From: Candidatus Woesearchaeota archaeon
GTDB lineage: Archaea; Nanobdellota; Nanobdellia; SCGC-AAA011-G17; UBA489
Reading direction: 5' to 3'
Length of the DNA: 26,872 nucleotides
Assembly (NCBI GenBank): GCA_964500345.1
Contig: CAZCNK010000003.1
Coordinates: forward strand, 6,568 to 33,439
Of the stretch, positions 1 through 23,365 are shown piece by piece. The notes beneath the pieces are model-generated. The model worked only from the letters and a program-made list of their open reading frames with translations. It was not told the origin of the DNA and made no database searches. The position numbers and the translations under genes were made by a program. The first letter of the stretch is position 1. Every line of letters starts with the position of its first letter.

Positions 1-55
1 TATAAATCTAATCTTATTATAAATCTAATCTTATTATAAATCTAATCTTATTATA
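1..55. repeat. 17-bp perfect tandem repeat, (TATAAATCTAATCTTAT)x3 plus partial TATA; cut by the window edge
   Basis: Units at 1-17, 18-34 and 35-51 are identical with no spacers; overlaps the stop codon (51-53) of the minus-strand permease gene. Confidence 0.95.
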
Positions 56-1256
56 GCATATACAATATTACAGGAATTATTAATGAGGACATGAGGTGGT
101 TTTTGCTAATTCTTTTGAGAGTTGGGATTAAGCCGAGAAAAGTTGAGGTGAAAAGGACAAGCAGTCCATAAACTCCCGATATAAAGAAAACTAAAATGGA
201 GATAAAAGCAATGATAAAGAGGGAGATTTTTTTGTAATTTATTTTTGTGATTATCTTTGAGAAGATTTTTGCTATTTTTAATGTTAGAAAAGTTGCAAAG
301 AAAGAGGAGATTAAGGATACAGAGAAGAAGATTAGAAGATGAAGAGGGGTAATTTGATATAGGAGTTTTGAGATTGCAACTACTGAGCCATTTCTTGATT
401 TTTCTATAGTAAATAAAGTGATAAAGGAGATTATTGTTGAGACTATTGAGATTGAGGATGAGAGGATGAGAAATCTTTTTTTGGTGTTGATTTTTGTTAT
501 TGAGGTTGCGAGGACTGCTGCTTGAGAAGGGCCTATTGCTGGGAGGAATGAAAAGATTGAGCCGGTGATTGTTGAGAGAAAGATTGTGCTTATTGATTTT
601 TTGAATGAAATTTTTGGGAATGAGCTTTCTTGAGATGGAATGGAGAGATTTTGTAAAAAACTATGGAGGAGTATTGAAGTGCCAAAGAGGCCTGAAAGAA
701 GTGGGAGAAGAGGCTCTTTTAAATTTGGAAAATTTAATACAGCTAAGCCTAGAGAACCTGAGAGTAGAGTTGTGATGAGAGACCAGAATTTTGAATTTTT
801 TTCTCTTAGAATTAAGATTAAAGTTATTGCAATAAGGATGTAGGGAATTTTTGATTTTATTAATGGATAGACTGTTTTTATGAAGAGATATGCAGGATGT
901 GATAAAGAGACAATTAAGATTAGAGAAGAGAGGCAACTAAAGATGCTTAGGATTATTGCATGGTAGGCTTGGCCTTGCAAGAGTAGTTTATGGGCTGGTA
1001 ATGTAATTAGAAATGAATCTGAATCTGGAGCTCCTAGGTATGTTGAGGGAATGAAGTTTAGGAAGATGTGAGTAATTGACATTGAGATAATGATTATTGA
1101 GAGGAGTAATGGGGAGAATAGATCTAAGAGATATGAGGAGGTGACTATAATGAGGGAGGCAATTAGATTTATGTGAAGACCAGGAGTTAAACCTGTAATT
1201 GAGCCTAGTAAGGAGCCTAACAAGGTTGAGAGCAGAATTTTTATTAAGAGGATCAT
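51..1256 (-). CDS. Tripartite tricarboxylate transporter TctA / DUF112-family multi-pass membrane protein
   Basis: 401 aa, highly hydrophobic; N-terminal GSLLGSITGLTPGLHIN, FIPSTYLGAPD, a second repeat GSIFSFLPAIGPSQAA and RNG near the C-terminal half match the archaeal TctA-like pattern. Confidence 0.8.
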   Translation of the reverse strand: MILLIKILLSTLLGSLLGSITGLTPGLHINLIASLIIVTSSYLLDLFSPLLLSIIIISMSITHIFLNFIPSTYLGAPDSDSFLITLPAHKLLLQGQAYHAIILSIFSCLSSLILIVSLSHPAYLFIKTVYPLIKSKIPYILIAITLILILREKNSKFWSLITTLLSGSLGLAVLNFPNLKEPLLPLLSGLFGTSILLHSFLQNLSIPSQESSFPKISFKKSISTIFLSTITGSIFSFLPAIGPSQAAVLATSITKINTKKRFLILSSSISIVSTIISFITLFTIEKSRNGSVVAISKLLYQITPLHLLIFFSVSLISSFFATFLTLKIAKIFSKIITKINYKKISLFIIAFISILVFFISGVYGLLVLFTSTFLGLIPTLKRISKNHLMSSLIIPVILYML

Positions 1257-1400
1257 GAATTTGTTAATATTTTGAAATTAAAGAATTTAATTTAGGAAAA
1301 AGCGAAAAACATTTGATGAGGGGGGGAAGATTTTTGAGATTATTGGAAGAATTTTGGAAAAATTGGAGATTTGTGAAAATCTTTTGGATTCTCCGGAAAA

Positions 1401-1440
1401 TTTTTAGATTGAAGTTATTTTTTTTAGATTAGGGTTATTT
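1401..1440. repeat. 20-bp imperfect tandem duplication spanning a stop codon
   Basis: tttttagattgaagttattt (1401-1420) and tttttagattagggttattt (1421-1440); on the minus strand this reads KKITLI* then KKITSI*. Confidence 0.8.
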
Positions 1441-1780
1441 TTTTGGCTTCAATTTCTAAACTGTTTTGATATTGCTTAATAATACCTTCAACTTCTATTA
1501 TTGAATTTTTTTGCAGTGTTATGTTTTGATTTTTAAATGCGACTACTTTTATCTCTCCTGTATTATCTTTTAGTGTAAGAATTAGAACAGAGGGAGTATC
1601 TTTTATTGAGGCAATTGTGCCTTTTACTTTTACAGACTTATCTATTGAGGAGTTTGTTATTGAGGAGATTTGAGAGGATTCTAATGAGAGTTTTTCTGAG
1701 AGGAAGATTAGAATTAAAATCCCAATTAAAGCAAAGATTAATGAGACTTTTAAAAGAGTTTTTTCTTTTATTTGCGGCAT
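1424..1780 (-). CDS. Membrane-anchored OB-fold (nucleic-acid-binding type) protein
   Basis: 118 aa; one N-terminal TM helix (SLIFALIGILILIFL), then VKVKGTI...LTLKDNTGEIKVVAF...IEVEGIIKQYQNSLEIEAKKI, the typical OB-fold beta-strand pattern. Confidence 0.75.
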   Translation of the reverse strand: MPQIKEKTLLKVSLIFALIGILILIFLSEKLSLESSQISSITNSSIDKSVKVKGTIASIKDTPSVLILTLKDNTGEIKVVAFKNQNITLQKNSIIEVEGIIKQYQNSLEIEAKKITLI

Positions 1781-1790
1781 AGTTATAGAA

Positions 1791-1810
1791 AGATTTATAT
1801 CCTTTAAATA
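1791..1810. promoter_or_regulatory. Back-to-back archaeal TATA boxes for the divergent OB-fold gene and tyrS
   Basis: TTTATAT (1794-1800) is 24 nt before ATG 1825; TTTAAA (1803-1808) is 22 nt before the minus-strand ATG at 1780. Confidence 0.6.
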
Positions 1811-1824
1811 GTTTTTTGGTTTTT

Positions 1825-2910
1825 ATGGATATAGAAAGTAAAATTGAATTGGTGAAAAAGGTTGGAGAAGAGATAATAACTGAGCAAGAGTTGAGAGAAT
1901 TGTTTGAGAGAAAGAAAAATCCTGTTGCTTATGATGGATTCGAACCATCAGGGTTGGCCCATGTAGCCTTTGCAGTATTGCGAGCAATTAATGTAAATGA
2001 CCTAATTAAGGCTGGAATAATGTTTAAGTTGTATATTGCGGATTGGTTTGGATGGATTAATAATAAGATGGGGGGTGATCTTAGCAAGATTAGAAGGGTT
2101 GGAGAATATTTTGTGGAGAGCTGGAAAGCAGCTGGAGTTGATATGAGTAAAGTAGAGATTGTTTGGAATAGTGATTTAGCTGATGAGAGAGATTATTGGG
2201 AGAAGGTGATAAAGATTGCTAAGGGTACTTCTTTACAGAGGGCTACTAGATGCTTGACTATAATGGGAAGAAAGGAGGGAGAATTAAAAGAGACTGCACA
2301 GTATTTTTATCCTATGATGCAGACTGCAGATATTTTTCAATTAGGAGCAGATATTTGCCAGCTTGGTTTAGATCAGAGAAGAGCGAATATTTTGGCTAGA
2401 GAAATCGGGCCTAAATTAGGATATTGGAAGCCTGTAGTTGTTAGCCATCATATGTTGATGAGCTTGCAAGGAATAAAAAATCCAGAAGGTTATGATGAAA
2501 ATAAGGAATTAGATTTAGAGATAAGTAGTAAGATGAGTAAAAGCAAGCCTGAGAGTTGCATTTTTGTGCATGATGATTTTGATGTTATAAAAAAGAAAAT
2601 TGGAAATGCTTATTGCCCTGAAGGGGTTGTTGAGAATAATCCGGTGTTGGAGTATTGTAAGCATATTATTTTTAGGAAATTTAAGAGTTTTAAAGTTGAG
2701 AGGGAGAAAAAATTTGGAGGGGACGTTGAGTTTGCGAGTTATGAAGAATTAGAAGAGAATTATAGAGAAGGGTTACATCCAATGGATTTAAAGAATAGTG
2801 TTGCTTTGTATTTAGATAAAATAATAAAACCAATTAGAGAACATTTTGAAAAAAATAAAAAGGCAAGAGAACTTTATGAATTTGTTAAGAGGCAAGAGAT
2901 AACAAGATAA
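1825..2910 (+). CDS. tyrS: Tyrosine--tRNA ligase, archaeal/eukaryote-like type
   Basis: AYDGFEPSG..H (HIGH region), IADWFGWINNKMGGDL, YPMMQTADIF, QLGLDQR, SHHML and KMSKS motifs. The track start 1816 is a TTG; ATG 1825 fits the TATA spacing better (361 aa). Confidence 0.97.
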   Translation: MDIESKIELVKKVGEEIITEQELRELFERKKNPVAYDGFEPSGLAHVAFAVLRAINVNDLIKAGIMFKLYIADWFGWINNKMGGDLSKIRRVGEYFVESWKAAGVDMSKVEIVWNSDLADERDYWEKVIKIAKGTSLQRATRCLTIMGRKEGELKETAQYFYPMMQTADIFQLGADICQLGLDQRRANILAREIGPKLGYWKPVVVSHHMLMSLQGIKNPEGYDENKELDLEISSKMSKSKPESCIFVHDDFDVIKKKIGNAYCPEGVVENNPVLEYCKHIIFRKFKSFKVEREKKFGGDVEFASYEELEENYREGLHPMDLKNSVALYLDKIIKPIREHFEKNKKARELYEFVKRQEITR

Positions 2911-2927
2911 TTAAAAATAAATTAAAA

Positions 2928-3683
2928 ATGAGAATTATTAAAGTGCCTTATTCTAATGGCAGTATGGGAAGAAATTTGGGTTGTGAGAAGGCTCCTGATA
3001 GGATTGTTGAATGCTTAAAAGAGTTTATTTGGAGCAATGATAATGGTGAGGATTTAATTGAGAAGATAATGAGATTAGAGATTAAGGAATGCGATTTAGA
3101 TAAGATGATTGATGGAGACTTTTATCTTGGAGGAGATCACAGTGTAAGTTATTTTGCTTTTAAAAAATTTATAAGTTCTGGCAAATTTAAAAATCCTGGA
3201 CTGGTTGTGTTTGATTCTCATCCTGATGTTTTTGAAATTGATGGCAAGATAAGCCATGAGGATTGGATTAAGCATTTGATAGATGAGAATGTTTTGAGAG
3301 AAGAGAATGTTATTGTTATTGGACTGAGGAATTGTGATTGGAGTGAGTTGGAGTATTACAAAGAGAAAAAAGTAAAGTACTTTATGATGAAAGAGGTTTT
3401 TGAGAATAGGGAGAATGTTTGCGATGTTGTAATGGAGAAGGCTAGAGAGTTTGATGGTTTTTATTTAAGTGTTGATATTGATGTTTTAGATCCAAGTTGT
3501 GCACCTGGAACTGGATACTTGGAGCCAGGGGGAATGCAAACAAGAGAATTACTTTATTTTTTGAGCAGATTAAGGTTGCTGAGGAATTTAAAGAGAGTAG
3601 ATGTTGTCGAGGTAAATCCTGATAAAGATATAAATGGAATGACTGTGAAGAATGCAGCAAAAATAATCGGAGAGTTGTTATGA
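2928..3683 (+). CDS. Arginase/agmatinase (ureohydrolase) family metalloenzyme
   Basis: All binuclear Mn ligand motifs are present: GGDHS, DSHPD, SVDIDVLDP, PGTG...EPGG, DVVEVNP. Substrate cannot be assigned from sequence. Confidence 0.92.
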   Translation: MRIIKVPYSNGSMGRNLGCEKAPDRIVECLKEFIWSNDNGEDLIEKIMRLEIKECDLDKMIDGDFYLGGDHSVSYFAFKKFISSGKFKNPGLVVFDSHPDVFEIDGKISHEDWIKHLIDENVLREENVIVIGLRNCDWSELEYYKEKKVKYFMMKEVFENRENVCDVVMEKAREFDGFYLSVDIDVLDPSCAPGTGYLEPGGMQTRELLYFLSRLRLLRNLKRVDVVEVNPDKDINGMTVKNAAKIIGELL

Positions 3684-4195
3684 GATTATTTATTGGCTTT
3701 GATGTTCCTGAAGAAAGAATAAAAGAGATAAATGAGAAAATTGAAGATAAAGGGATAAAGAGAACTAAAGAGTTTCATTGCACTTTGAAATTTCTGGGAG
3801 AGGTTGAAGATGAAAAAGTGAGAGGTATAGTAGAGAGATTAAAAAGAATAAAGTTTAAAAAATTTTATGTTGAACTTGGGAACGTTGGGTTTTTTCCAAA
3901 TGAAGATTATATTAAAGTAATATATCTTGAGATATTAGGACAGGAAGTCAATAAGTTAAGGGAGGAAATAGAAAAATCTCTTGAGGGTATTTTTCCTAGA
4001 GAGGAGAGATTTAAGGCTCATGTTACTCTTGGAAGGGTGAAATTTATTGAGAATAAAGAGGAATTAAAAGAAATAAAGAAATTGGGAGGGGAGAGGGAGA
4101 GGTATTTGATTGATAGTTTTAAATTAGTGAAAAGTGAGTTGAGGAGAGAAGGTCCTTTTTATGAGAATATTGAAGTTTTTAAAAGTCAAGATTGA
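3680..4195 (+). CDS. thpR: RNA 2',3'-cyclic phosphodiesterase (2'-5' RNA ligase, 2H family)
   Basis: MRLFIG start, two HxT motifs (FHCTLKFLG, AHVTLGR), C-terminal L.KSEL...GP.Y; ATGA overlap with the upstream gene. Confidence 0.93.
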   Translation: MRLFIGFDVPEERIKEINEKIEDKGIKRTKEFHCTLKFLGEVEDEKVRGIVERLKRIKFKKFYVELGNVGFFPNEDYIKVIYLEILGQEVNKLREEIEKSLEGIFPREERFKAHVTLGRVKFIENKEELKEIKKLGGERERYLIDSFKLVKSELRREGPFYENIEVFKSQD

Positions 4196-4259
4196 ATTTC
4201 ATTATATATAATAAAAAGCAATAATTTTTATTAAATAGTGAATATTAATTGTTTTTTTA

Positions 4260-4724
4260 ATGTCTATTTCAGTAGAATTGGAGAAAGAAGGTCTAGAAAA
4301 AAGATTGAAAGATTTTATAGGTAATGTTCTTGGAATTCTTAAGGGATTAAATTTTGAAGCTGAGGAGCAGCCTTATGAAAGGGTTGTTGATGGATTGGCT
4401 AGAGTTTATGGTGTTAGTGAAAGAGATAGATGGAAAATTGAGAGGATATGGAGAGGGGTATATAATGTAATTGCTGTAGGAGATATTAAATACAGGAGTA
4501 TAGATGTTTTTTCTAGGATGAATGAAAAGAGATGGATAAGAGTAAAGGAGCTTAGTGCTGAGGAAATTTTAAGAGGAGTAATAGAAGAACAGGAAATGAG
4601 AGTTGAAAGAGCGAAGTTAGAAAGAGCTAAAAAAGATAAGGGAGAGAGGTATAATGGGATGATAGAGGGCAAGGAAGAATATAGAGGGCTGTATCTATTT
4701 CAATTTTTTGATGGTATTCTTTAG
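4260..4724 (+). CDS. Hypothetical protein (charged, helical)
   Basis: 154-aa ORF fills the gap with plus-strand-typical G/A-rich codons; no motif recognised; 4-nt convergent overlap with the ERCC4 gene. Confidence 0.55.
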   Translation: MSISVELEKEGLEKRLKDFIGNVLGILKGLNFEAEEQPYERVVDGLARVYGVSERDRWKIERIWRGVYNVIAVGDIKYRSIDVFSRMNEKRWIRVKELSAEEILRGVIEEQEMRVERAKLERAKKDKGERYNGMIEGKEEYRGLYLFQFFDGIL

Positions 4725-5383
4725 AAATACTTTTCATCTAGGACTTTTCTTATTTGAGATGCTTTTATTTTTCCAATTTTTTCTACTTTTTCTAATTGTT
4801 TATGTTTTGCATTTATTATTTTTTTAACGGTTTTGAATTTTTTTAGCAATGACTTGGAGAGTGTTGAACCTATTCCTGGTAATGTTTCAATAATTAATTC
4901 TTGTTGCTCTTTTATGGAAAGAGGTTTTCTTTTTTTTAGCAGATTAATATTTCTTCTTGGATTTTCTAGTCTTTTTGCTATTATTGAAATCAATGAAGCG
5001 GTGTCTCTGAAGTTTTTTGTGTGGAGCATTGGAATTTGAAAGTCTATTGCGATTGAGGCTAACATGCCACGGATTGAGTTCGGGTGGAAATTTCTGAGAG
5101 TGTAAATGTTATCTGAGCCTTCAATTATCAAGAGAGGAATTTGGAAATTTTCTTTTAGGAGAATAAGTTGAGAGATTATTCTTTTATCAATTATTGAATT
5201 TAGAAAATCATTTTGGGTTTTCTTTTCTATGCCAACTAGGATTTCATTATTTTCATGATTTGTGCTTGAAATAATAAAGTCTGCTGTAACTAGGTTTTTT
5301 ACTTCTATGTCAAGACCTTTTTTTGCAAGTTCTTTTATTATTCCTGAGCTGCGTTCACGATGATCTATGATGACTTTTGGCAT
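4721..5383 (-). CDS. hef: ERCC4/XPF-family nuclease with C-terminal HhH2 (Hef nuclease half)
   Basis: IIDHRE start, ADF...IEKKTQNDF..SIID.R (GD..ERK...D motif variant), LLIIEG, HhH motifs LPGIG and VEKIGKIKA. Confidence 0.9.
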   Translation of the reverse strand: MPKVIIDHRERSSGIIKELAKKGLDIEVKNLVTADFIISSTNHENNEILVGIEKKTQNDFLNSIIDKRIISQLILLKENFQIPLLIIEGSDNIYTLRNFHPNSIRGMLASIAIDFQIPMLHTKNFRDTASLISIIAKRLENPRRNINLLKKRKPLSIKEQQELIIETLPGIGSTLSKSLLKKFKTVKKIINAKHKQLEKVEKIGKIKASQIRKVLDEKYF

Positions 5384-5392
5384 TTTAGCATT

Positions 5393-6928
5393 TTAGATTA
5401 GAGTTTTTTGAGTTTTTTGCTCTTCTTGATTTTCCAAAGTGATTTCGTTTTGAAGTTGCATTTGCCTTAAAGTTTTCTTCATAACATTTTCTTTTCTTTT
5501 TGCTGACCAGAAATATACCTGGTCGCGACCGGTTTTTGTGAGCAGGAGAATTATTTTCCCGGGCTTAGTTCTTGCTACACGACCTGAGCGCTGGATTGAT
5601 CTGATTTCTGATGGTACGGCGTCATAGAATATACAAATGTCTAGAGAGCCAATTGAAAGTCCCTCTTCACCTATTGAGGTTGCTACCAAAACATTAAAGA
5701 TGTTTTGTTCGAATTTTTGGATGGTTTCAATTTGTTTTTTTTGAGATAGGCCTTCTTTTTGACCTATTAGCTTGATTGGTTTTACTTGGGAGATAGAGGA
5801 TAATAAGTTGACAATCTCTTCTACTGTATTTCTATAGTTTGCGAATATCATTATTTTTGATTCTGGATTTGAAGCAATTTGAGATTTTATGAATTCTTTT
5901 AACTTTTCCAGCTTTGGGTGTATTATGTTTTGATTTTTAAGATCATTTATTTTTTTGATTGCGAGAGAGATGTTTTTTTCTTTTGTAATTATTCTTGAGG
6001 CTTTTGAGCTTTCTTGAGACATCTTTTGGAAGAAATCTAGAGGAGAGTTTAGAGATTGAGTTTCTAATAGTTCTAGGAGATGTGATACTTTTAGGCATTG
6101 AGCAACAAGGGAAGAGCCCCAAAATGCCCTCATATCTCTTTTTTTAATTTGGGACTGAAAGTATTTTTGCATTTGGAGAAGATCTTTTTTGTTTATTAAA
6201 TTGGATGGCTTGTGAAGCCCGAATTTTCTTAATGAGGAAACTTTTTCTTGGTAAACTTTTTTGATGAGAGAGTGAATTTCTAATAAGGACGGAGGAAGTT
6301 CGACAGTAATGTATTCTGTTTCTTTTTTTTGGACGTATGGGATTACGTCTTGGTCTTGTTCTGTTTTTATTTCTACGGATTCTATGTTAAGGTTTGAGCA
6401 GATTTCATTTATTTTTTCTTTTGTTGAGCCTGGAGAGGCTGTTAGAGCAAGAATTCTCGGGCATTTTGACTGTTGAAAGTAGATTTTTGCTATTTTTGTG
6501 TTTGCAAATTTTTGCCTTGAGCGATGGCATTCATCAATGCAGAGCATGCTTACATCATCTAGCGAGATTTTATTAGAAGCTAAGTCATTCTCTATGGTTT
6601 GTGGGGTTGCAGCTATGACCTTTGAGATTTGCCAAAATTTTTTTCTTTCTTCTGGAGGTAAAGCTCCTGTAAGGACTGAAACTAAAGCAGGATTTATTGT
6701 TGTTGAAGATTTGAATTCTTCTGCAATTTGATTTGTTAATGGTTTTGTCGGAGAGCAGATTAAAACTTTTGAATCTGGAAATTTATTTAAACGATCAATA
6801 GCAAGCATAATTGCAATTTTTGTTTTTCCTGTTCCTGTTGGCAAGCAAGCTAGAGTGTTTGATTTTTTAGATGTTTCTAATATACTTAATTGGTATGCTC
6901 TTGGAGTGAAGTTTTTGATTTCTAGCAT
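5393..6928 (-). CDS. hef: SF2 DEAH helicase, Hef/FANCM/Mph1 family (Hef helicase half)
   Basis: PRAYQ, LPTGTGKT (motif I), PTKPL, TPQ, DECHR (II), LTASPGS (III), HPKL, ATSIGEEGL (V), QRSGRVAR (VI). Confidence 0.93.
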   Translation of the reverse strand: MLEIKNFTPRAYQLSILETSKKSNTLACLPTGTGKTKIAIMLAIDRLNKFPDSKVLICSPTKPLTNQIAEEFKSSTTINPALVSVLTGALPPEERKKFWQISKVIAATPQTIENDLASNKISLDDVSMLCIDECHRSRQKFANTKIAKIYFQQSKCPRILALTASPGSTKEKINEICSNLNIESVEIKTEQDQDVIPYVQKKETEYITVELPPSLLEIHSLIKKVYQEKVSSLRKFGLHKPSNLINKKDLLQMQKYFQSQIKKRDMRAFWGSSLVAQCLKVSHLLELLETQSLNSPLDFFQKMSQESSKASRIITKEKNISLAIKKINDLKNQNIIHPKLEKLKEFIKSQIASNPESKIMIFANYRNTVEEIVNLLSSISQVKPIKLIGQKEGLSQKKQIETIQKFEQNIFNVLVATSIGEEGLSIGSLDICIFYDAVPSEIRSIQRSGRVARTKPGKIILLLTKTGRDQVYFWSAKRKENVMKKTLRQMQLQNEITLENQEEQKTQKTLI

Positions 6929-7326: not shown

Positions 7327-7944
7327 ATGGCTAGTCAAACAAAAGCAAGATATAGGGTATTAACTTTGGATGATGTTGCTGCTGATAGTGGAAAGTATAG
7401 AACACAAGAAGAGTGGAGTAAATGGTTTAATAAGCATAATAGAATAATGGCGTCTGCTCCAGATGTATATCAGGCTGGAAAAAGCGGTTCTAATAAACTA
7501 TTAAGAGGACTTCGTGAAGATTTTGAATTAGGAGTTGTGACAAGTACCAGAATAGAATATAATCCAGATGATTTACATGCTAGGATAACACATTATGTTG
7601 GTAGTAGGGTTAAAAATCCAGTTCAATCTAGGGGAATTGTAGTTCCTGTTTATCTTAATGAATCAATAGAAAGGGTACTTAGAGAAGAGGAAGGTTTGTT
7701 GTACCTACAAACTTTATTTAATACAAATGATAAGGCTGAGGAGATTGTAGATATTCTTGAAAATTTAAGAAAAAAAGAAGATAATAGAATTTGGACTCTA
7801 GATCAAGAAGATAGAAGAGATTATATGGAAGGGGCGACCTTCTTCCTCTCCGGTTGTGGTGAGTTTCTTATCGTTGGCGACGCCCTAGTTGGTGGCCTCA
7901 ATGGGCGCTCTCGTGGATGCCAAGAAAATTTACAGAGGAAATGA
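7327..7944 (+). CDS. Hypothetical protein, candidate DGR variable (target) protein
   Basis: 205 aa, no signal peptide; C-terminus GATFFLSGCGEFLIVGDALVGGLNGRSRG has the Gly/aromatic-rich, GxSRG-ending form recalled for archaeal DGR C-type-lectin-fold targets, and its DNA shifts abruptly in composition. Confidence 0.8.
   Translation: MASQTKARYRVLTLDDVAADSGKYRTQEEWSKWFNKHNRIMASAPDVYQAGKSGSNKLLRGLREDFELGVVTSTRIEYNPDDLHARITHYVGSRVKNPVQSRGIVVPVYLNESIERVLREEEGLLYLQTLFNTNDKAEEIVDILENLRKKEDNRIWTLDQEDRRDYMEGATFFLSGCGEFLIVGDALVGGLNGRSRGCQENLQRK
7834..7920 (+). other. Putative DGR variable region (VR)
   Basis: Hand count: 87 nt contain 8 A and 51 G+C (about 59% GC, far above the surrounding DNA); 24 of 29 codons end in C/T. 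No matching template repeat was seen in the window. Confidence 0.65.
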
Positions 7945-8075
7945 AGGTATTGTAAATTGAGGAAAAGTTAGAGTAGTTAAGAAAAGAATTATTAAGATTT
8001 TATTTCTCTAAAAGGATTGAATCTGAACTTTTGAATTGCGGAAAGTATATAAACTATACTCCTCCATACTACTAT

Positions 8076-8216
8076 ATGAAGCAGGAAATGGTTATGATCT
8101 CACGTGAAGAATATGAACAGCTTAAGAAACAAGCTGAAATAGACATGGATATATTACGCCAATTTATTAGCAGCTTAAAAGATCTAAAAGAAGGCAGAAT
8201 AAGAAGGGTTAAGTAA
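8076..8216 (+). CDS. Small putative antitoxin (46 aa)
   Basis: MKQEMVMISREEYEQLKKQAEIDMDILRQFISSLKDLKEGRIRRVK; the V.ISREEYE.L and D.KEGR pattern is typical of small archaeal antitoxin-like proteins. TATATAAA at 8046-8053 supports ATG 8076 over the track start 8031. Confidence 0.65.
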   Translation: MKQEMVMISREEYEQLKKQAEIDMDILRQFISSLKDLKEGRIRRVK

Positions 8217-8535
8217 ACGGAAATTTTTTCAGTAACTCTAATATTTCATCTTTGTAAATATCCAACATCAAAAATATTGTATTAATCGCTTTCTGTTGGT
8301 CTTTCTTACTGCTGATAGCAACCATCAAAACAGACTTTAAATCATCGTATATCAGATAATACACTCTAAATTTATCGTGTTTCTTTTCACGACACCAAGG
8401 TACTCTGATTTGATCTCCTACATATGGATTTTCAACTAGCTGATCCTCAATCTTTTCTAACCATCTTTTAAATTCTAAGGGGTGCTTTTCTAATTCTTCA
8501 TCGAATGTATTAGAATGGAATACTTTATAGAGCAT
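8209..8535 (-). CDS. RelE/ParE-superfamily toxin-like protein
   Basis: YKVFHSNTFDEE...QLVENPYVGD...REKK...FRVYYLI...VLMVAIS.KK; RelE-like size and strand order. TTTAAATA (8564-8557) supports ATG 8535 (108 aa). Confidence 0.75.
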   Translation of the reverse strand: MLYKVFHSNTFDEELEKHPLEFKRWLEKIEDQLVENPYVGDQIRVPWCREKKHDKFRVYYLIYDDLKSVLMVAISSKKDQQKAINTIFLMLDIYKDEILELLKKFPFT

Positions 8536-8590
8536 TATCAAAAAAATATTTATCAATATTTAAAGCTACTGCCATCTAAAGTTCTAGAAT

Positions 8591-13413: not shown

Positions 13414-13514
13414 TTTCCTCTTTTTCCTTTAAATTTTAAGGGAAGATGGCTATAAAAGTTTTTGGTTTTTTATTTTTTAATATGAGAAAGTTTTTAAATT
13501 AAGAGTTGCTTTTA

Positions 13515-15782
13515 ATGAATATGAGCGGGGAAAAGATTGAGGTGTTGGTGGAGGGGAGCGAGCAGGTTTTGAGAGTAGATGCTAATTCTTGGAGTTACAG
13601 TCCTAGTATTGAGGATAGCGCTTTGGTTATGGGTTATGTGATTGATAAATTAGTTGAAATTCCCGGGGTTAGCAGGATTGTTTTTAATCAGAGAAGAAAT
13701 TTTATTTATGAGTATGATCAAGTAAAGATATTAGTTGAGATAGCGCAGATATATGGCCATTTGGTTAAGGGAAAGAAGATATTTAGCTTAATTGGATATG
13801 ATGAGGGGAGCGGAAGATTTTTTGGGGAAAAGATTGGTATTTTGCAGTATTTGATTTATAATTTGTTGAGAAATGATCCTATTGGATGCTATGTAGAGGT
13901 AAAGAGATTAGTAAGAGAAGAAAGAATAAGGTTAGAGAAGGAGGGAGATTTGAGATTAATAGATGCAAGAAAGGAGTATATTGCCTTATTGAGTTATATT
14001 TTTAATTTGTTGGATAGAGCTAGAATAATTTCTTTAGTTAAAGAAGAGTTAGATGGATATAAGGTTGGTGAGAGAGGTTTGTATAAAAATTTATTTAGGG
14101 CGGTTATAACTCCAGATTTTATTTTTACTAGAATAATGAGCAGCCCTCCTTTGGATGGGGAAGAGATAGAGGCTTATAGTTTTGGCAAGAGTGATGTTGT
14201 GATTTACAAATTACCAGGAGAGATTAAATTATTGTATCATCTAAATGTGCCAGAGTTTAAATTGGATGAGGATGAATATATGCTAGTGGAGTTGGCCAGG
14301 AATGTTTTGGCTGAGCATAAACCGAGAGAAGAGGAATTCTTGGATCCGAGCAGAATGAGAGATACAATATATAATATTGGAAGAGATCTGTTGAATGAGC
14401 TGGCTGAGAATAAAGGTATTCAATTAGCTTATAAAAGGGTTGAGGAATTAGCTGAGATTTTGGTAAGATATACAGTAGGTTTTGGTGTGATTGAGATTTT
14501 GTTGCAGGATGAGAAGGTTCAAGATTTGAATATTAATGCACCTATTGGGCAAACAAATATTTTTATTGTGCATCAAGATTATGGAGAGTGTGTTACTAAT
14601 ATTATTCCGAGTAGAGAAGATGGAGAGGGATGGGCTACTAAATTTAGGCTGTTGAGTGGGAGACCTTTGGATGAGGCTAATCCAATTTTAGATACTGAGT
14701 TGAGTGTAAGCGGCGGAAGAAGTAGAGTAGCAGTGATTATGAATCCTTTGAGCCCTAATGGATTGGCTTTTGCATTTAGAAGGCATAGGGATAAACCTTG
14801 GACTTTGCCTTTGTTTATTGAAAATAGAATGTTGACTCCTTTAGCAGCAGGATTGATAAGCTTTTTAGTTGATGGAGGGAGAAGCATTATTTTTTCTGGA
14901 ACTAGATCGAGCGGTAAGACAAGTTTGATGCAGGCTATGATGCTGGAGATAATGAGGAAGTATAGAATTTTAACTGTTGAAGACACGCTTGAAATAAGTC
15001 AGGAGTATTTTAGAAAATTAGGATATAACATATTACCAATGAAGGTTAGGAGTGCTTTGATGAGTGGGGGGACTGAACTTGCAGCTGAAGAGGGAATAAG
15101 AACTAGTTTGAGGATGGGAGATAGCAGTTTGATTGTTGGAGAGGTTAGATCAAATGAGGCGAGGGCTATGTTTGAGGCAATGAGAGTAGGAGCTTTGGCA
15201 AATGTTGTTGCCGGAACAATTCACGGAGCAAGTCCTTATGCTGTTTTTGACAGGGTTGTAAATGATTTGGGTGTTCCAAGGACTAGTTTTAAGGCTGTTG
15301 ATGTAATTGTGATTAGTAATCCTGTGAGAAGCGCAGATGGATTGAGAAGTTTTAGGAGAGTTTTACAGATTTCTGAGGTGAGGAAGCATTGGGAAGAGGA
15401 TCCTTTAAGAGAAAAGGGATTTATTGATTTGATGAATTATGATAGCAAGTTAGATTTGTTAAAAGAAACTGATGATTTGAAGAATGGAGAGAGTGATGTA
15501 TTAAAGGAGATTGCTGGCAATGTTAGGGAGTGGGCTGGAAATTGGGATGGTGTTTGGGAGAATATTTTATTAAGGGCAAGGATAAAAGAGAGCTTAGTTA
15601 ATTTTGCTAGAAAGAGCGGAAATAAATTTTTATTAGAGGCTGATTTTGTTGTTAAGAGCAATGATCTTTTCCATAGAATTAGTGAAAAGATAATGGAGGA
15701 GGTTGGGTATTTGGACAGCAAGATGATTTATAGAGATTGGGAAGATTGGTGCAAGAGAGAAATAAAGGAGAAGAAAATTTAA
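13515..15782 (+). CDS. Type II/IV secretion, VirB11/TadA/CpaF-family pilus assembly ATPase
   Basis: Walker A GTRSSGKTS, Asp box VEDTLE, Walker B IVGEVRS, His box GTIHG, AFAFRR; long N-terminal extension. Start may be 13515 or 13521 (the track's 13506 is TTG). Confidence 0.92.
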   Translation: MNMSGEKIEVLVEGSEQVLRVDANSWSYSPSIEDSALVMGYVIDKLVEIPGVSRIVFNQRRNFIYEYDQVKILVEIAQIYGHLVKGKKIFSLIGYDEGSGRFFGEKIGILQYLIYNLLRNDPIGCYVEVKRLVREERIRLEKEGDLRLIDARKEYIALLSYIFNLLDRARIISLVKEELDGYKVGERGLYKNLFRAVITPDFIFTRIMSSPPLDGEEIEAYSFGKSDVVIYKLPGEIKLLYHLNVPEFKLDEDEYMLVELARNVLAEHKPREEEFLDPSRMRDTIYNIGRDLLNELAENKGIQLAYKRVEELAEILVRYTVGFGVIEILLQDEKVQDLNINAPIGQTNIFIVHQDYGECVTNIIPSREDGEGWATKFRLLSGRPLDEANPILDTELSVSGGRSRVAVIMNPLSPNGLAFAFRRHRDKPWTLPLFIENRMLTPLAAGLISFLVDGGRSIIFSGTRSSGKTSLMQAMMLEIMRKYRILTVEDTLEISQEYFRKLGYNILPMKVRSALMSGGTELAAEEGIRTSLRMGDSSLIVGEVRSNEARAMFEAMRVGALANVVAGTIHGASPYAVFDRVVNDLGVPRTSFKAVDVIVISNPVRSADGLRSFRRVLQISEVRKHWEEDPLREKGFIDLMNYDSKLDLLKETDDLKNGESDVLKEIAGNVREWAGNWDGVWENILLRARIKESLVNFARKSGNKFLLEADFVVKSNDLFHRISEKIMEEVGYLDSKMIYRDWEDWCKREIKEKKI

Positions 15783-15883
15783 TTTTGTTGATTTTGTTTG
15801 CAATATGTTGATCTGCCAGTTTTTGATTTCATAGTTTAATGATTTGTTAAGAAGCTTATTAATGTTTCTTTCAAAGCCCGCCA

Positions 15884-16366
15884 TTACAAGTTACGCTTAA
15901 TTATTTGTCTTGCAAAATTATCAATATCAGTCTTAGCAGAACTGTCCGACAAATTATATAAAATTTCAAAATCAAAACCTAAATCAAATGCCTCAAATAC
16001 AGAAGCTAGCACACAAGCGTCTAAATCTAAACCACAAAAATACAATTTTGAAATTTTGTTCTGACTCAAAAAATCAACAAATTGTTTTGATTTGAATATT
16101 GAATATGTGCTTTTTTCAAAAATATGATTTTTCAATGCAATTTCAGAAAGCTCTGGGGCAACATCACTGTCAGGAGATTTTTTACATTTATTCCAATTCA
16201 ATTTCTTAACAAAATTCGAGCTTTCCGAATTGATGAATTTCGAGAAGATAATGAAATCATATTTTTGTGATTCAATGTGCTTCTTAATTTTTTGAGGAAG
16301 TGTTTTAATTTTCTCGGTAATAAAACAATTCTGTAAGTCTAGAATGATAAGGGCAGTTCTGCTCAT
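15884..16366 (-). CDS. Isochorismatase / cysteine hydrolase family protein
   Basis: ALIILDLQNCF (Asp), FEKSTYS (Lys), CGLDLDACV (Cys) give the catalytic triad motifs. TTTATATA at about 16396-16389 favours ATG 16366 (track start 16375). Confidence 0.9.
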   Translation of the reverse strand: MSRTALIILDLQNCFITEKIKTLPQKIKKHIESQKYDFIIFSKFINSESSNFVKKLNWNKCKKSPDSDVAPELSEIALKNHIFEKSTYSIFKSKQFVDFLSQNKISKLYFCGLDLDACVLASVFEAFDLGFDFEILYNLSDSSAKTDIDNFARQIIKRNL

Positions 16367-16545
16367 AATAGTCATTAAATTAGATTGATATATAAATCAT
16401 CTCATTGAAGGCGGGCGGGGGGAAATGTCATCTAACAACTATTAAATGAGATAAATATTCGTTTAATAGTTTAAATTAGGATAAAAAGCAAGATTTATAC
16501 TAGAACGTAAGATAAGTGACGCTAACTTAACAGCTCTTTACATAA

Positions 16546-16561
16546 TAAGTATTAATACTTA
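16546..16561. promoter_or_regulatory. 16-bp perfect palindrome TAAGTATTAATACTTA, candidate operator
   Basis: Perfect self-complement in the 266-bp divergent intergenic region, about 50 nt upstream of the TATAAATA box of the 16642 gene. Confidence 0.35.
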
Positions 16562-16641
16562 CATTGGAAAAAAGATTTTTTTTCTGAATATTAAAATCCT
16601 TTTTGGTAAAGTATAAATATAGTTGAGTAATTAGTTTAGGT

Positions 16642-18768
16642 ATGGATGGAGATGTTAGGGAGATTTTAGAGAGATACAAGGGAAAATTGGAGGATGGTAG
16701 TTTAGATTTTGAGAGTAGTTCTATTGGCTCCAGGGGATCTGGTGTGATGAGCAGGGAGTATGATATATTCAGGAGAGAAATGCTGGAGAAGAGGGTTAGT
16801 AATTATGAAAAGTGGTGCAATGTTGCTGAGAGAATTTTGAGAGTAAGGGCAAGTGAGAAGGAAAGAGAGGGTTTATTAAAATCTATTGAGACTAGCCATT
16901 TAAATATAAGCCCTGAGGGTGCTACTAGTTTTGCTGCGCTTGTTTCTGTTTTAGTAATTTTATTTGGCATAATGATTGGAGTTTTGAGTTATGCTTTTGG
17001 AGAATTGTGGTTGATTACCCCTTTATTTTTTGTGTTGGCTGGGGCTGTGATGATAAAACCTTTGACGCATATTCCAAATTATATTGCAAATAGATGGAGA
17101 TTAGAGGCAAGCAATCAAATGGTTTTATGCATTTTGTATGTTGTAATGTACATGAGGCATACTTCTAATTTAGAACATGCAATTAGATTTGCTGGAGAGC
17201 ATATAGGAGGGGCTTTAAGTTTGGATTTGAAAAAGGTTTTTTGGAACGTGGAGACTGGAAAGTTTTTTTCTATTAAAGAGAGTTTGGATAATTATTTGGA
17301 GGGTTGGCGGGGGTGTAGTATGGAATTTATAGAAAGTTTTCATTTGATTGAGGGAAGCTTGTATGAGATAAATGAGAATAAGAGAGTAGAGATGCTGGAG
17401 AAATCTTTGCAAGTAATGTTAGAAGGAACTTATGAAAAGATGTTGCATTATGCTCATAATTTACAGAGCCCAATTACTGTTTTACATATGTTAGGGATTA
17501 TATTGCCTGTTTTGGGATTAGTTATTTTTCCTTTGATTGGAAGCTTTTTATCTGGATTGATAAAATGGTATCATTTAGCAATTCTTTATGATATTATTTT
17601 GCCTGTTTTTGTTTTTTTTATGGGAAATAATTTATTGAATAAGAGACCAACTGGATATGGAGAGAGTGATGTAAGAAGAGATATGAATGTTGAGGAATAT
17701 AAAGAGAATTTTTTTGGAGCGGATCCTAAATTTGCAGGGATTTTGATTGGGGCTTTGATAGTTATGATTGGGCTAGTCCCAATGTTTGTTTATTTTTTTG
17801 CTCCTGGGTTTGATTTTGAATTCTTTGGAGGGAAGTTTTTTGATTACAAGGATGGGAATGGGCCTTATGGCATTGGGGCATTGATGTTTAGCCTGTTAAT
17901 TCCTATTGGATTAGCAGTTGGATTTTTTATTAATTATTATTTTAAGACGAGAAAGTTAATTTTTGTTAGGAAAAGAACAGATAATTTGGAGAAAGAGTTT
18001 TCTGGTGCAATATTTCAATTGGGAAATAGGATTGGAGATGGTGTTCCGGCTGAGGTTGCTTTTGGAAGTGTTACTGAAAGCATGAGAGGAACTGAGGCAG
18101 GAGATTTTTTTTTTTTTTTTAATGAGAATATTAGGAGATTAGGGATGAGCATCAAAGAGGCTATATTTAATGAAAAGGTTGGGGCTATTTTGTATTTTCC
18201 CAGCAAGTTAATTGAGAGCAGCATGAAGGTTTTGGTTGAGAGCAGCAGAAAAGGGCCTGGAACTGTGAGCAGGAGTTTAATTACTATAAGTAATTATGTT
18301 GATAGAATAAGGCAGGTAAATGAGAGACTAAAGGATTTGATGGCTGAGGTTTTGAGTAGCATGACATCGCAGATTAATTTTTTAACTCCTGTAATCGCTG
18401 GAATTGTTGTTGGTGTTGGTAGTATGGTAGTTACAATTATTAATAAATTAGGAGAACAATTTTCTCAAGTAAGTGTGCAGGGTTTTGATGCTGGAGGAAT
18501 TGCAGGAATTGCCAAGATTTTGAGGATTGAAGATGTTATTCCAGGATTTCAATTTCAAAGCATAGTTGGGATTTATTTAGTTGAGATAACAATAATATTA
18601 ACTATATTGGCAACTGGAATTGAGAGGGGTGTTGATAGAGTAAGCAATAGAAATAAGATTGCTAAGAATTTAATTAGAGCAGTAGGATTATATGTGGTAA
18701 TTGCATTTGTTGGAATAATAGTATTCAACTTATTGGCTAATGCTGTTAGTTTTTCAGTAGCAAGTTAG
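16642..18768 (+). CDS. Pilus membrane platform protein, T2SSF family with two domains (TadB+TadC-like fusion)
   Basis: 708 aa; two cytoplasmic helical domains (LEASNQMV..ILYVVMYMR..SNLE.AI.FA; LEKEFSGAIFQLGNRIGDGVPAE.AF), each followed by TM helices; next core gene after the ATPase. Confidence 0.8.
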   Translation: MDGDVREILERYKGKLEDGSLDFESSSIGSRGSGVMSREYDIFRREMLEKRVSNYEKWCNVAERILRVRASEKEREGLLKSIETSHLNISPEGATSFAALVSVLVILFGIMIGVLSYAFGELWLITPLFFVLAGAVMIKPLTHIPNYIANRWRLEASNQMVLCILYVVMYMRHTSNLEHAIRFAGEHIGGALSLDLKKVFWNVETGKFFSIKESLDNYLEGWRGCSMEFIESFHLIEGSLYEINENKRVEMLEKSLQVMLEGTYEKMLHYAHNLQSPITVLHMLGIILPVLGLVIFPLIGSFLSGLIKWYHLAILYDIILPVFVFFMGNNLLNKRPTGYGESDVRRDMNVEEYKENFFGADPKFAGILIGALIVMIGLVPMFVYFFAPGFDFEFFGGKFFDYKDGNGPYGIGALMFSLLIPIGLAVGFFINYYFKTRKLIFVRKRTDNLEKEFSGAIFQLGNRIGDGVPAEVAFGSVTESMRGTEAGDFFFFFNENIRRLGMSIKEAIFNEKVGAILYFPSKLIESSMKVLVESSRKGPGTVSRSLITISNYVDRIRQVNERLKDLMAEVLSSMTSQINFLTPVIAGIVVGVGSMVVTIINKLGEQFSQVSVQGFDAGGIAGIAKILRIEDVIPGFQFQSIVGIYLVEITIILTILATGIERGVDRVSNRNKIAKNLIRAVGLYVVIAFVGIIVFNLLANAVSFSVAS
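18105..18120 (+). repeat. T16 homopolymer inside the platform gene
   Basis: GGA GAT TTT x5 AAT gives GDFFFFFN; the frame is intact. Confidence 0.9.
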
Positions 18769-18780
18769 AAATGTTTATAT

Positions 18781-19485
18781 ATGGAAATTGATTTTAAGAT
18801 GTTAGTAATTTTTAAAGAAAGAGGTAAAATGAGAGAATTTCACTGGTTGCATGTTGTAAGCTTGTTTCTTTTAATAATGGTGGCTGGTTTTTTAAGCCAG
18901 GGTAACCTAACTGGTGGGGCTTTTTACAGGGATTATGGAGATGGTTATGGTGCTGGTGGATTTAATTTTTTTGGATATGGTGGTTATGGAGGATTTGGAT
19001 ATTTTAATTTTAGTGAGATGTATTATCAATATGCCTCTTTGATAGATGCCGTGATTTTTTTAGTTATCTTCTTGAGTTTGGGTAAAAGTATTTTTGGAGA
19101 GCATTTTAAGGAGAGTAAGGGAGTTTACATTGGGATTGGATTATTTTTAACAATGAGTTTGTTGTTGTGGGAGGAAAGAACTGGCTTTTCTCTTGTCGAA
19201 AGATTTGGACCTTTTGTTTTTTTCATTTTTTTGATAGTTTTAATATTTTATGTTTTTAAGTGGATAAAAGAGGCTGGAGCGGGGGCTTTGTTTGCAGCTG
19301 CTGTTGCTTATTTGATATTTTTCTTTTTTGTTTCAAGTTGGATTCAGGATTATGATTTAATGGGATGGTTGCCAGATGTAACACAAGGAATGATGTGGTG
19401 GCTTTTAACTGTAAGCTGGATTTTGGCTTGGTTTGTGGCTATTGGAAGCTTGATTTACTGGGTATGGAGTAAATTAAGCGGATAA
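18781..19485 (+). CDS. Multi-pass membrane protein with a Gly/Tyr/Phe-rich low-complexity loop
   Basis: 234 aa; YRDYGDGYGAGGFNFFGYGGYGGFGYFNF after the first TM. An internal ATG (MREFHW) is an alternative start. Confidence 0.75.
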   Translation: MEIDFKMLVIFKERGKMREFHWLHVVSLFLLIMVAGFLSQGNLTGGAFYRDYGDGYGAGGFNFFGYGGYGGFGYFNFSEMYYQYASLIDAVIFLVIFLSLGKSIFGEHFKESKGVYIGIGLFLTMSLLLWEERTGFSLVERFGPFVFFIFLIVLIFYVFKWIKEAGAGALFAAAVAYLIFFFFVSSWIQDYDLMGWLPDVTQGMMWWLLTVSWILAWFVAIGSLIYWVWSKLSG

Positions 19486-19554
19486 AAATAAATATAAGGT
19501 CAATAAATATAAACCCGATAATTATAAGGAAATAAATATAAAATGAATGATTAA

Positions 19555-19770
19555 GTGAGTAGATTGGAGGTAAGAATGAAAATAATGGTGACATTTGTTG
19601 GAATATTGACAATACTTGGAGGGTTATTGCCTTTTTTGGAGAAGATGAATTGGCTGCCTGAATCTGTGAAGTGGATTCCGACAAGTGGGCCTTGGTATCA
19701 GGCAATTATCATTGGTGTTGGGGTAATTGCTGTAATCTATGGAATAATGAAGAGTAGTAGTGAGCTATGA
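19555..19770 (+). CDS. Small two-TM membrane protein
   Basis: FVGILTILGGLLPFL and WYQAIIIGVGVIAVIYG helices; start GTG 19555 or a nearby downstream ATG. Confidence 0.75.
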   Translation: MSRLEVRMKIMVTFVGILTILGGLLPFLEKMNWLPESVKWIPTSGPWYQAIIIGVGVIAVIYGIMKSSSEL

Positions 19771-19874
19771 AGAAAGGAGAATTGGGTGTAATTTTGACTA
19801 TTGTAATCGTGATTGTATTTTTGTTTATCTTATTTTATATTGCAAGAAATGTCTTGGGTGATATACTTGGATAA
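19767..19874 (+). CDS. 35-aa pilin-like peptide with a class III signal peptide (not in the ORF track)
   Basis: MKKG|ELGVILTIVIVIVFLFILFYIARNVLGDILG*; ATGA overlap with the upstream stop (19767-19770). Confidence 0.7.
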   Translation: MKKGELGVILTIVIVIVFLFILFYIARNVLGDILG

Positions 19875-20583
19875 AAAAGGAGTTAGCATGGTAGTTGTTG
19901 GGGCCATAGTTATCTTAGTTGGAGCTATTGTGGTTTTTATTTTTTTAAATAATCTTAATCTTTTTGTCAGAGAGCAAAGCGAATTAGAGAAATGCAGGTT
20001 GAGTGTTTTAGCAAAATCGAAATCTAAACTGATTACGTTTGGAGCTGAGAGTGATGTTGAGCTGAAATGCAAGACTAAGATAGAGGAGATTAATGAGAGA
20101 GATAAAAAGATGGTTATGGGAATAATGGCTGAGAACATGAGGGAATGCTGGTGGAAATTTGGAGAGGGAAAGATTGATTTTTTGAGTGAATATGACTGGT
20201 TTGGGAGTGACTATAGATGTTTTATTTGCTCGAAGAAGATATTTAGAAATGATGTTGAGAGAATTACTCATGAGGATTTTGAGAGATTTTTAAGCACTAA
20301 GAAAATGGAGGGTAGTGATAAGGCTTATAAGAATTATTTTACTTGGGGTTCTAATAGAAATATTTATTCAGAGGGAAGTTATGATAAAGAATTTTCAACT
20401 AAAAATGGAGAGAGTGTTTATGCTGTATTTGTTGGGGCTAAGAAGACAATTCATCCAGAGAATGCTTGGTGGGGGGAGTATGTTGTAGCTGCTTTTGGGG
20501 GGGTTGCTTCGCCGCATTTTTTAAAATGGGTTTACGTTGTTAATGCTGAAGACATTAAGGAGAGGTGCGATACTTTAGAATGA
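19849..20583 (+). CDS. Pilin-like / surface protein with a class III-like signal and Cys-containing ectodomain
   Basis: DKKG|VSMVVVGAIVILVGAIVVFIFL, then CRLSV, CKT, RECWWKFGEG and CFIC. Start is uncertain: ATG 19849 keeps KKG, while ATG 19888 follows AAGGAG. Confidence 0.75.
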   Translation: MSWVIYLDKKGVSMVVVGAIVILVGAIVVFIFLNNLNLFVREQSELEKCRLSVLAKSKSKLITFGAESDVELKCKTKIEEINERDKKMVMGIMAENMRECWWKFGEGKIDFLSEYDWFGSDYRCFICSKKIFRNDVERITHEDFERFLSTKKMEGSDKAYKNYFTWGSNRNIYSEGSYDKEFSTKNGESVYAVFVGAKKTIHPENAWWGEYVVAAFGGVASPHFLKWVYVVNAEDIKERCDTLE

Positions 20584-20771
20584 AATTTAGAAAGAAAATT
20601 TTAAAGAAAGATTTTGTGAAGTTTTTTAGGAAAGGGGCAATGGAGTTTGAGGAAATTGGGAGATGGGTGATTGCAGTAGTTTTATTAGTTGTTTTAGTTG
20701 GGATTATAATTGTATTAAGCAAGAAGTATCCTTTAATTTTGGAGAAATTGAAATGGGTCTTGAGGCGATGA
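20580..20771 (+). CDS. Short pilin (class III signal peptide, Glu at +5)
   Basis: RKG|AMEFEEIGRWVIAVVLLVVLVGIIIVL; 44-aa predicted mature form; ATGA overlap with the upstream gene at 20580-20583. Confidence 0.8.
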   Translation: MKFRKKILKKDFVKFFRKGAMEFEEIGRWVIAVVLLVVLVGIIIVLSKKYPLILEKLKWVLRR

Positions 20772-20923
20772 GAATAAATTTTAGAAAGAGAGGATTTATG
20801 GAGTTTGAGAAGATAGTTGGATTAGTTATTGTTTTATTAATCATCATATTTAGCATTTTTGTTATACTAAAGATAACTGTTTTAAGAGATATTTTTTTGA
20901 AATTGTTTAATATTTTAAAATAG
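20768..20923 (+). CDS. Short pilin, paralog of the previous gene
   Basis: MRINFRKRG|FMEFEKIVGLVIVLLIIIFSIFVIL; 42-aa predicted mature form; ATGA overlap at 20768-20771 (track start 20663 overlaps the previous gene). Confidence 0.8.
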   Translation: MRINFRKRGFMEFEKIVGLVIVLLIIIFSIFVILKITVLRDIFLKLFNILK

Positions 20924-20952
20924 GAAAATTTTTATAGATAAAAATTAGGGGC

Positions 20953-22362: not shown

Positions 22363-22443
22363 TGCTTCTTTGATTTAATGAGAAGAGTATATTAAAAATA
22401 AAGGTAGAAAGGTTTATAAATTTGGAATGGTGAGAGAATTAAG

Positions 22444-23363: not shown

Positions 23364-23365
23364 TC

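Follow-up and report, generated by a model that had tools for sequence, protein, structure and literature searches.

DGR target genes in archaea and phage

Archaeal DGRs were first described by Paul et al. (2015, Nat Commun 6:6585, PMC4372165), and the SAG AAA011-G17 is among the genomes of that study. In nanoarchaeal DGRs, the IMH features TGGGGT, the IMH* features TGGAAT, and hairpins with a GRA trinucleotide loop are located inside the target genes (PMC4372165). The same report describes "partial DGRs" of Nanoarchaeota, which are devoid of a reverse transcriptase (RT) and are interpreted as either fossils or remote targets. Remote targets, which are not adjacent to the rest of the DGR, were surveyed by Wu et al. 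(2018, PMC5758913), and are exemplified by the TvpA paralogs of Treponema denticola. The structure of a nanoarchaeal DGR variable protein, AvpA, has been solved and features a C-type lectin fold (Handa et al. 2016, PMC5006420). In the Bordetella phage BPP-1, disruption of the hairpin abolishes detectable homing, and an IMH together with a hairpin is enough to turn a sequence into a target (Guo et al. 2011, PMC3240598).

The window, i.e., the whole 26,872-nt stretch of DNA that was analysed, is part of contig C3 of an assembly of 1.1 Mb, which is 86.5% complete and consists of 116 contigs. The open reading frame at 7327–7944 (+ strand) encodes a 205-residue protein that, as indicated by its HMMER relatives, belongs to a nanoarchaeal family of DGR target proteins, which is unnamed and not represented by a Pfam family. 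The system is a known one, with reports of the phenomenon going back to 2015, and the window gene is a further example: in a tiny DPANN archaeon, one more target gene carrying a variable region (VR) is left without its retroelement.

The DGRs of the DUSEL4 Nanoarchaeota (PMC4372165) involve the same protein family as the window gene (contig AQRL01000028), and share the IMH/IMH* pair and the trinucleotide-loop hairpin with those family loci of the present analysis that are served by a template repeat (TR). The partial DGRs reported in PMC4372165 are said to have retained their cis-acting elements. The window copy, in contrast, lacks the hairpin, its IMH is shortened and its genome yielded no TR, so that it is more decayed than the partial DGRs. 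The window gene also resembles the remote targets of PMC5758913, as the VR gene lies far from RT and TR, and several paralogous targets are present in one genome. However, in accepted remote targets, all differences to the TR are at adenines, whereas the window gene and its paralogs differ from one another at non-adenine positions and in length. We regard the window VR as a relic DGR variable region, frozen in a gene that is still open, and assign to this reading a probability of roughly two in three.

Composition of the window gene

The first 169 codons of the gene (7327–7833) encode a scaffold (residues 1–169) that is conserved in family alignments. This segment is A-rich, as the original prediction had stated (38.3% A, 33.3% GC). 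The following 87 nt (7834–7920) contain 8 A, 24 C, 27 G and 28 T (58.6% GC), and 24 of the 29 in-frame codons have C or T at the third position. The recount thus agrees with the A-poor, GC-rich tail of C/T-ending codons initially described. At the protein level, the tail reads ...NGRSRGCQENLQRK. The island is the sole one of this kind in the window: at least 51 G+C are found in 10 of the 26,786 87-nt stretches, all of which fall within 7826–7921.

Two segments may be distinguished within the island. The variable part of the VR (7837–7902) includes 22 codons (residues 171–192), as determined by comparing three copies of the region, and is predicted to form a beta-hairpin in an AF2 model. It is followed by a 13-nt block, GGGCGCTCTCGTG (7903–7915), which is identical in the three copies, codes for GRSR and marks the 3' end of the VR.

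In AT-rich archaeal genomes, a GC-rich island frequently turns out to be an RNA gene. The whole assembly contains 14 islands such as that of the window; 5 of them are DGR-type variable regions, and the others include rRNA-like sequence (C5) and tRNA-Ile (C40). The resemblance of several of these islands to rRNA or tRNA sequences would fit the notion that the window island is a non-coding RNA gene, or a structured element, over which an ORF spuriously extends. We give this notion almost no credence. Neither a tRNA (ARAGORN) nor an Rfam family was found at the island on either strand, fold energies, computed on both strands, are like those of shuffled sequences (z = -1.07 and -0.35), and hundreds of homologues keep the same reading frame across the island.

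The GC skew of the window is strongly positive, ranging from 0.4 to 0.7 in most 500-nt segments (e.g., 1–5000 and 13500–22500). It is about 0.2–0.3 over the minus-strand gene at 5393–6928, and slightly negative over 23000–25500.

A protein family diversified by DGRs

A fast word-index protein search retrieved only the two proteins of the genome itself, and the family emerged only with an exhaustive HMMER profile search, by which 393 relatives were identified (59 at E ≤ 1e-30, with E down to 1e-51). Matches span residues ~12–201 of the query, i.e., nearly end to end, and most of those listed run to the C-terminal end of the hit or close to it. In the family alignment, a conserved body of ~170 residues is followed by the pattern ERAxxFxxxxGxFxVxG...GRSRGV, in which hypervariable residues are interspersed between fixed positions. 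The window protein has no match in Pfam, and no family member has a consistent one; the family profile has no match among PDB sequences. In the ESM Atlas, the protein falls among unnamed archaeal (Nanobdellota) clusters. Neither the single protein nor a VR/TR pattern specific to the lineage had a match in the JGI metagenomes. In a collection of species-representative genomes, the only match is contig AQRL01000028 of the Nanoarchaeota SAG AAA011-G17 (tblastn of the window protein, E = 1e-38).

When 401 genomes of the phylum were searched with the profile in six frames, the family was found in 28, often in multiple copies. Additional short matches, restricted to the VR and located right beside family genes, correspond to template repeats. 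We checked nine loci in other genomes (L021; G072, G014, G236, G239 and two in G181; AAA011-G17; G286), and in all nine, a family C-terminus is paired with a TR that adjoins a DGR-type RT. In the core, VR and TR differ only or mostly at TR adenines. For instance, the last 84 nt of the homologue encoded by the groundwater contig L021 recur 1 kb downstream, adjoining an RVT_1 gene, and all differences between the two copies are at adenines of the downstream one. At six loci (G072, G014, the two in G181, G236 and G239), VR and TR were aligned, and the RT is directly 3' of the TR. In AQRL01000028, two tandem family genes, and hence two VRs, precede the TR, which in turn precedes the RT.

The family, the members of which would be binding proteins, serves as a target of DPANN/Nanoarchaeota DGRs. 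In its living members, an RNA copy of the nearby TR is reverse-transcribed, and errors are made at adenines. The resulting cDNA overwrites the last ~90 nt of the gene, by which about a dozen residues are randomised on the C-terminal beta-hairpin.

The G286 genome carries six family copies. The TR on contig C37 differs from the adjacent VR at 11 positions, and from a VR on another contig (C23) at 8; all mismatches (11/11 and 8/8) are at adenines, and neither VR has lost its IMH or its strong GC hairpin. The third copy compared, on C50, departs from the TR at 20 positions, 10 of them non-adenines; its IMH reads GGAGTG, and no GC hairpin is present. The family therefore holds both true non-adjacent targets and decayed copies. 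Judged by its sequence, the window gene looks like the decayed G286 copy and not like the non-adjacent target. VR-bearing family copies are also present in G353 (99% complete, 3 contigs), in which no TR was found anywhere, and G230 (93% complete, 7 contigs) carries one family copy and no RT match.

Gene arrangement varies within the family. Tandem arrays of six or three family genes are present in some genomes of the phylum (G238:C13:12383-19493, locus L063; G019:C64:3776-6095), and other family members are ~500 residues long and feature an additional N-terminal region. A run of four genes in L021 (487–4971), in which the stop of one gene overlaps the start of the next, begins with a gene for an AAA_5 ATPase and closes with the family gene; the arrangement suggests an operon. 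The RTs located beside family TRs in L055, L056, L057 and L064 are matched by tblastn in two pieces, with a break near residue 200, which could reflect a frameshift, an intron or an assembly error. The RT ORFs of L021, L061 and L062 are matched in one piece.

Paralogs in the same genome carry an imprint at adenine sites

Paralogs, which the original prediction had suggested looking for, were found in the assembly. The island recurs twice, on contigs C76 (77% identity) and C22 (73% identity). The C76 paralog is full-length (211 residues) and is 71% identical to the window protein at the amino acid level. The C22 gene is truncated by the start of the contig, and an N-terminal family fragment is present at the start of C20. 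The 13-nt block that closes the VR occurs nowhere else in the genome; it coincides with the end of the TR/VR homology, also ends both the TR and the VR of L021, and is slightly changed at other loci. Upstream of this block, differing columns are scattered along the DNA alignment of the three copies.

In the scaffold, the window and C76 genes differ at 19, 21 and 25 sites at codon positions 1, 2 and 3, respectively, over 168 codons, with a dN/dS of 0.84. Inside the island, differences among the three copies occur mainly at codon positions 1–2, and the number of variable columns per codon position is 9, 13 and 7. We compared these columns with eight TRs from other genomes. Majority-A is found at 15 of the 29 columns that vary among the paralogs, and at 7 of the 48 invariant columns (Fisher one-sided p = 6.5e-4). 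When only codon positions 1–2 are considered, the figures are 15/22 and 7/30 (p = 0.0015). The VRs therefore differ where the family template would carry an A. Moreover, divergence at adenine sites far exceeds that of the scaffold, so mutagenesis acted after the copies had separated.

Ordinary divergence of paralogs, or diversifying selection acting on a binding loop in a lineage that never hosted a retroelement, would also generate differences among the copies, and the scaffold is itself fast-evolving, as its dN/dS indicates, so that change is not confined to the tail. Selection, however, would not yield a patch of NNY codons, 59% GC and poor in A, in a gene of 33% GC, nor would it make the variable columns coincide with template adenines of unrelated genomes; homologues are, in addition, demonstrably DGR-written. 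We consider this explanation very improbable. The assignment of the tail to a DGR-type variable region, put forward from composition, is upheld by the full-length membership of the protein in a DGR-written family and by the coincidence of paralog-variable columns with adenines of foreign TRs.

The three copies have also drifted. A 3-nt indel and seven third-position differences are found at columns without majority A in the family TRs, and thus a single TR cannot now write all three copies. We asked whether non-adenine sites of the VR are more alike than those of the scaffold, as expected of homogenisation. In a hand count of third positions, which makes for an underpowered test, VR and scaffold differ at 2/25 and 25/168 sites between the window and C76, and at 6/25 and 6/51 sites between the window and C22.

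The region is present in Logan contigs from four groundwater runs, at a depth of 2–5x and fragmented throughout. Contigs that omit 7818–7925 were observed in two runs (X1 and X4); they carry the 6-nt insertion of the paralogs, from which they probably derive.

Template repeats and reverse transcriptases in the assembly

No TR for the window VR was found in the assembly by BLAST at E ≤ 10, by an ungapped scan tolerating mismatches at genomic A, by a scan for the invariant 3' block or motif, by a six-frame profile search, or by 28-nt tiles with at most one non-adenine mismatch, which would detect a split template. The original prediction had envisaged a template that differs at A positions and lies next to an RT elsewhere in the genome; the 86.5%-complete assembly holds none for this VR. 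Its statement that RT and TR are both missing from the 27 kb is correct, as RT matches are found on other contigs only.

The genome contains three RVT_1 matches, located on C2, C87 and C92. Complete DGR cassettes, in which target, TR and RT are on one strand, are present at C2:30720-33043 (L017:6720-9043) and C87:620-2925 (L018). In both cassettes, most TR/VR differences are at adenines of the TR (which appear as T on the + strand). For the two targets (287 and 302 residues), neither Pfam nor the PDB sequences gave a match; both targets and TRs are unrelated to the window family and its VR.

The third match, C92:1-411 (L019), corresponds to the last 136 residues of a DGR-type RT and is located at the very start of the contig. 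Relatedness of this fragment to other RTs, being 61–63% identical to the C2 and C87 enzymes and 45% to that of a family locus, did not identify its target family. Exact-protein look-up of the neighbouring gene, carried out in order to extend C92, gave nothing. As family-locus TRs sit just upstream of the RT, the TR of C92 is expected to lie off the contig. Since the assembly is incomplete and divided into many contigs, and the C92 RT is cut at the contig start, the cognate TR of the window VR could simply be unassembled.

The C92 fragment is the most plausible source of activity if the window gene and its two paralogs are still rewritten in trans by a DGR located elsewhere. A third distinct RT at a contig edge, at which the upstream TR position is missing, fits such a scheme, as does the G286 VR on C23, a non-adjacent target of the family. 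The lack of any TR or TR fragment in the assembly stands against it, as do the indel and the third-position differences among the three copies, which one TR could not write. In our estimate, ongoing diversification of this kind is possible but unlikely.

IMH and hairpin

For the comparison of IMH and hairpin sequences, the DNA 3' of the VR was taken from family VRs with a known TR, with the exception of G239. In seven family VRs whose TR lies in cis, GGGTG follows a shared CGTG (CGCG in L021), and the two TR-matching VRs of G286 read CGTCGGGTG at the IMH. TR-served VRs feature TGGGGT, and TRs feature TGGAAT. In the three copies of the present genome, the motif is TGGATG (window, 7914–7919), TGGGTG (C76) and TGAGTG (C22), and the sequence at the IMH reads GATGCC, GGTGCA and AGTGCC, respectively. 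All three are one base shorter than the canonical form, and by comparison with the TR-served VRs, the window motif is degenerate.

In seven of the eight TR-served family VRs that were folded, a perfect GC-rich stem of 4–6 bp with a GAA or GTA triloop is located 12–19 nt past the IMH. The exception, VR1 of G17, has a weaker 3-bp stem and a 5-nt loop. The 45-nt stretches downstream of these eight VRs fold with energies of -3.0 to -9.8 kcal/mol (DNA parameters). GC-rich hairpins with a GAA or GTA triloop are found at the same distance in the TR-matching VRs of G286 and in the live C2 and C87 VRs of the present genome, the cassettes of which carry GAA triloops; stems range from 3 to 6 bp over the whole set. 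In the window, C76 and C22, there is no GC-rich triloop hairpin and no perfect stem of at least 4 bp within 70 nt downstream. The downstream sequences of C76 and C22 have fold energies of -0.2 and 0.0 kcal/mol, and that of the window (-3.4 kcal/mol) forms only an unrelated AT-rich stem of 8 bp with a 16-nt loop. The corresponding inverted repeat (AATTTACA / TGTAAATT, 7927–7958) extends across the stop codon of the gene and is absent from C76 and C22.

Inspection by eye revealed, at the right distance in each of the three copies, a 15-nt stretch that may be drawn as an AT-rich 6-bp triloop stem with one mismatch. In the window, this possible remnant of a target-site hairpin is ATTTAC-AGA-GGAAAT (7928–7942). 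The three imperfect stems may have decayed from a common ancestral hairpin, as their sequences suggest.

BPP-1 and the family share the same architecture, in which the VR is followed by a GC-rich IMH and a downstream inverted repeat (PMC3240598). Family loops are 3 nt long (GAA/GTA), and stems are 4–6 bp long, whereas BPP-1 hairpins are GRNA tetraloops; the window lacks the element. The idea that archaeal DGRs strictly need a hairpin and an exact IMH would be an extrapolation from one phage.

These features offer a simple means of sorting orphan VRs by sequence alone, as within this one protein family, TR-served copies keep TGGGGT and the GC-rich triloop hairpin, and copies that have drifted from any template have lost both.

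Relic or live target

The original prediction had presented the gene as diversified in trans and, in explaining it, had allowed for either a remote or a fossil target. Of these alternatives, the fossil is favoured and the trans diversification of its title is not, because the assembly contains no TR, the IMH is degenerate (TGGATG) and the GC-rich triloop hairpin is absent. We infer that DGRs acted on this lineage in the past and are inactive on the gene at present.

The window copy and its two paralogs would thus bear the imprint of DGR activity, each with its own set of residues at the positions at which the template has adenines. The imprint appears to be frozen: the template seems to be gone, the IMH is one base short, the hairpin has apparently decayed, and drift at non-adenine sites has accumulated since. 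With their ORFs still open, the three copies probably survive as protein variants of fixed specificity.

Some observations do not sit easily with a relic. The ORFs are intact. The three copies share the short IMH, yet differ at adenine sites, and the short form could have been a working target after duplication. The latter observation also speaks for diversification that continues from a distant template, since the adenine-site differences postdate the separation of the copies although the short IMH is common to all of them. Open ORFs, and the presence in each copy of an imperfect triloop stem in which, by eye, 5 of 6 bp are formed at the right distance, point the same way. Such a scheme needs a short IMH specific to the lineage, and target-site hairpins that are weak, imperfect and AT-rich. 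In contrast, the proven remote target of G286 keeps both the canonical IMH and a GC hairpin of -13 kcal/mol, and the window has neither. Were the genes nevertheless active, target recognition in archaeal DGRs would be much looser than the phage paradigm implies, and a family of cytoplasmic proteins linked to toxin-antitoxin genes would be hypermutated in trans. A frozen VR remains our preferred interpretation, the main doubt about which comes from the missing upstream part of the third DGR.

Predicted structure and cellular location

An AF2 model of the window protein based on an 87-sequence alignment has a pLDDT of 95.4 and a pTM of 0.90; a run on 3 sequences reached a pLDDT of 36. In the model, the VR forms a beta-hairpin composed of strands E168–176 and E179–187, and the conserved block is located just before the last strand. 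The best Foldseek matches of the model, in both the PDB and the BFVD libraries, are CTLDs, with sub-significant scores (E 0.065–0.33, TM 0.17–0.48). None reaches E ≤ 0.001, and no DGR variable protein is found among the top 50 structural matches.

Several features of AvpA (PMC5006420) are found in the window protein. Both consist of a single domain of ~200 residues, in which a VR of ~25 residues precedes a last strand encoded by the IMH, and the last-strand motif of AvpA, RFxGV, resembles the RSRGV motif of the family (RSRGC in the window). By reading, the AvpA motifs GxxVVVYAH and HPxxxPFxG are absent from the family consensus. As to the AvpA-type C-type lectin fold, the CTLDs that are the best structural matches of the window model score E 0.065–0.074 and TM ≤ 0.48, which is not significant.

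The original prediction had also noted the absence of a signal peptide. In agreement, the N-terminus is hydrophilic and, in the model, is part of the domain's first strand; the protein is therefore likely to be cytoplasmic. The window protein is thus probably a small cytoplasmic protein; we infer that it has a binding function, in which case the ligand would be intracellular. The family, for which Pfam has no model, numbers hundreds of members, has a fold that is predicted with confidence and is often found next to toxin-antitoxin genes; it merits a name and an experimental structure.

Toxin-antitoxin genes near family members

A toxin-antitoxin-like pair had been reported next to the window gene. 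The ORF at 8209–8556 (- strand), which is relevant to the gene as context only, is indeed similar to ParE/RelE toxins, with a score slightly below the Pfam cut-off (PF05016, E = 2.2e-4, 22.1 vs 23 bits). However, the small ORF at 8031–8216 (+ strand) is convergent with it, and therefore the two do not form an operon pair. Both paralogs adjoin PemK/MazF genes (L002:314-890 and L003:440-1008), accompanied by an RHH partner at C22 and by an unmatched 83-residue ORF at C76. In L021, a HEPN-nucleotidyltransferase fusion (5041–5712) is encoded between the target and the TR.
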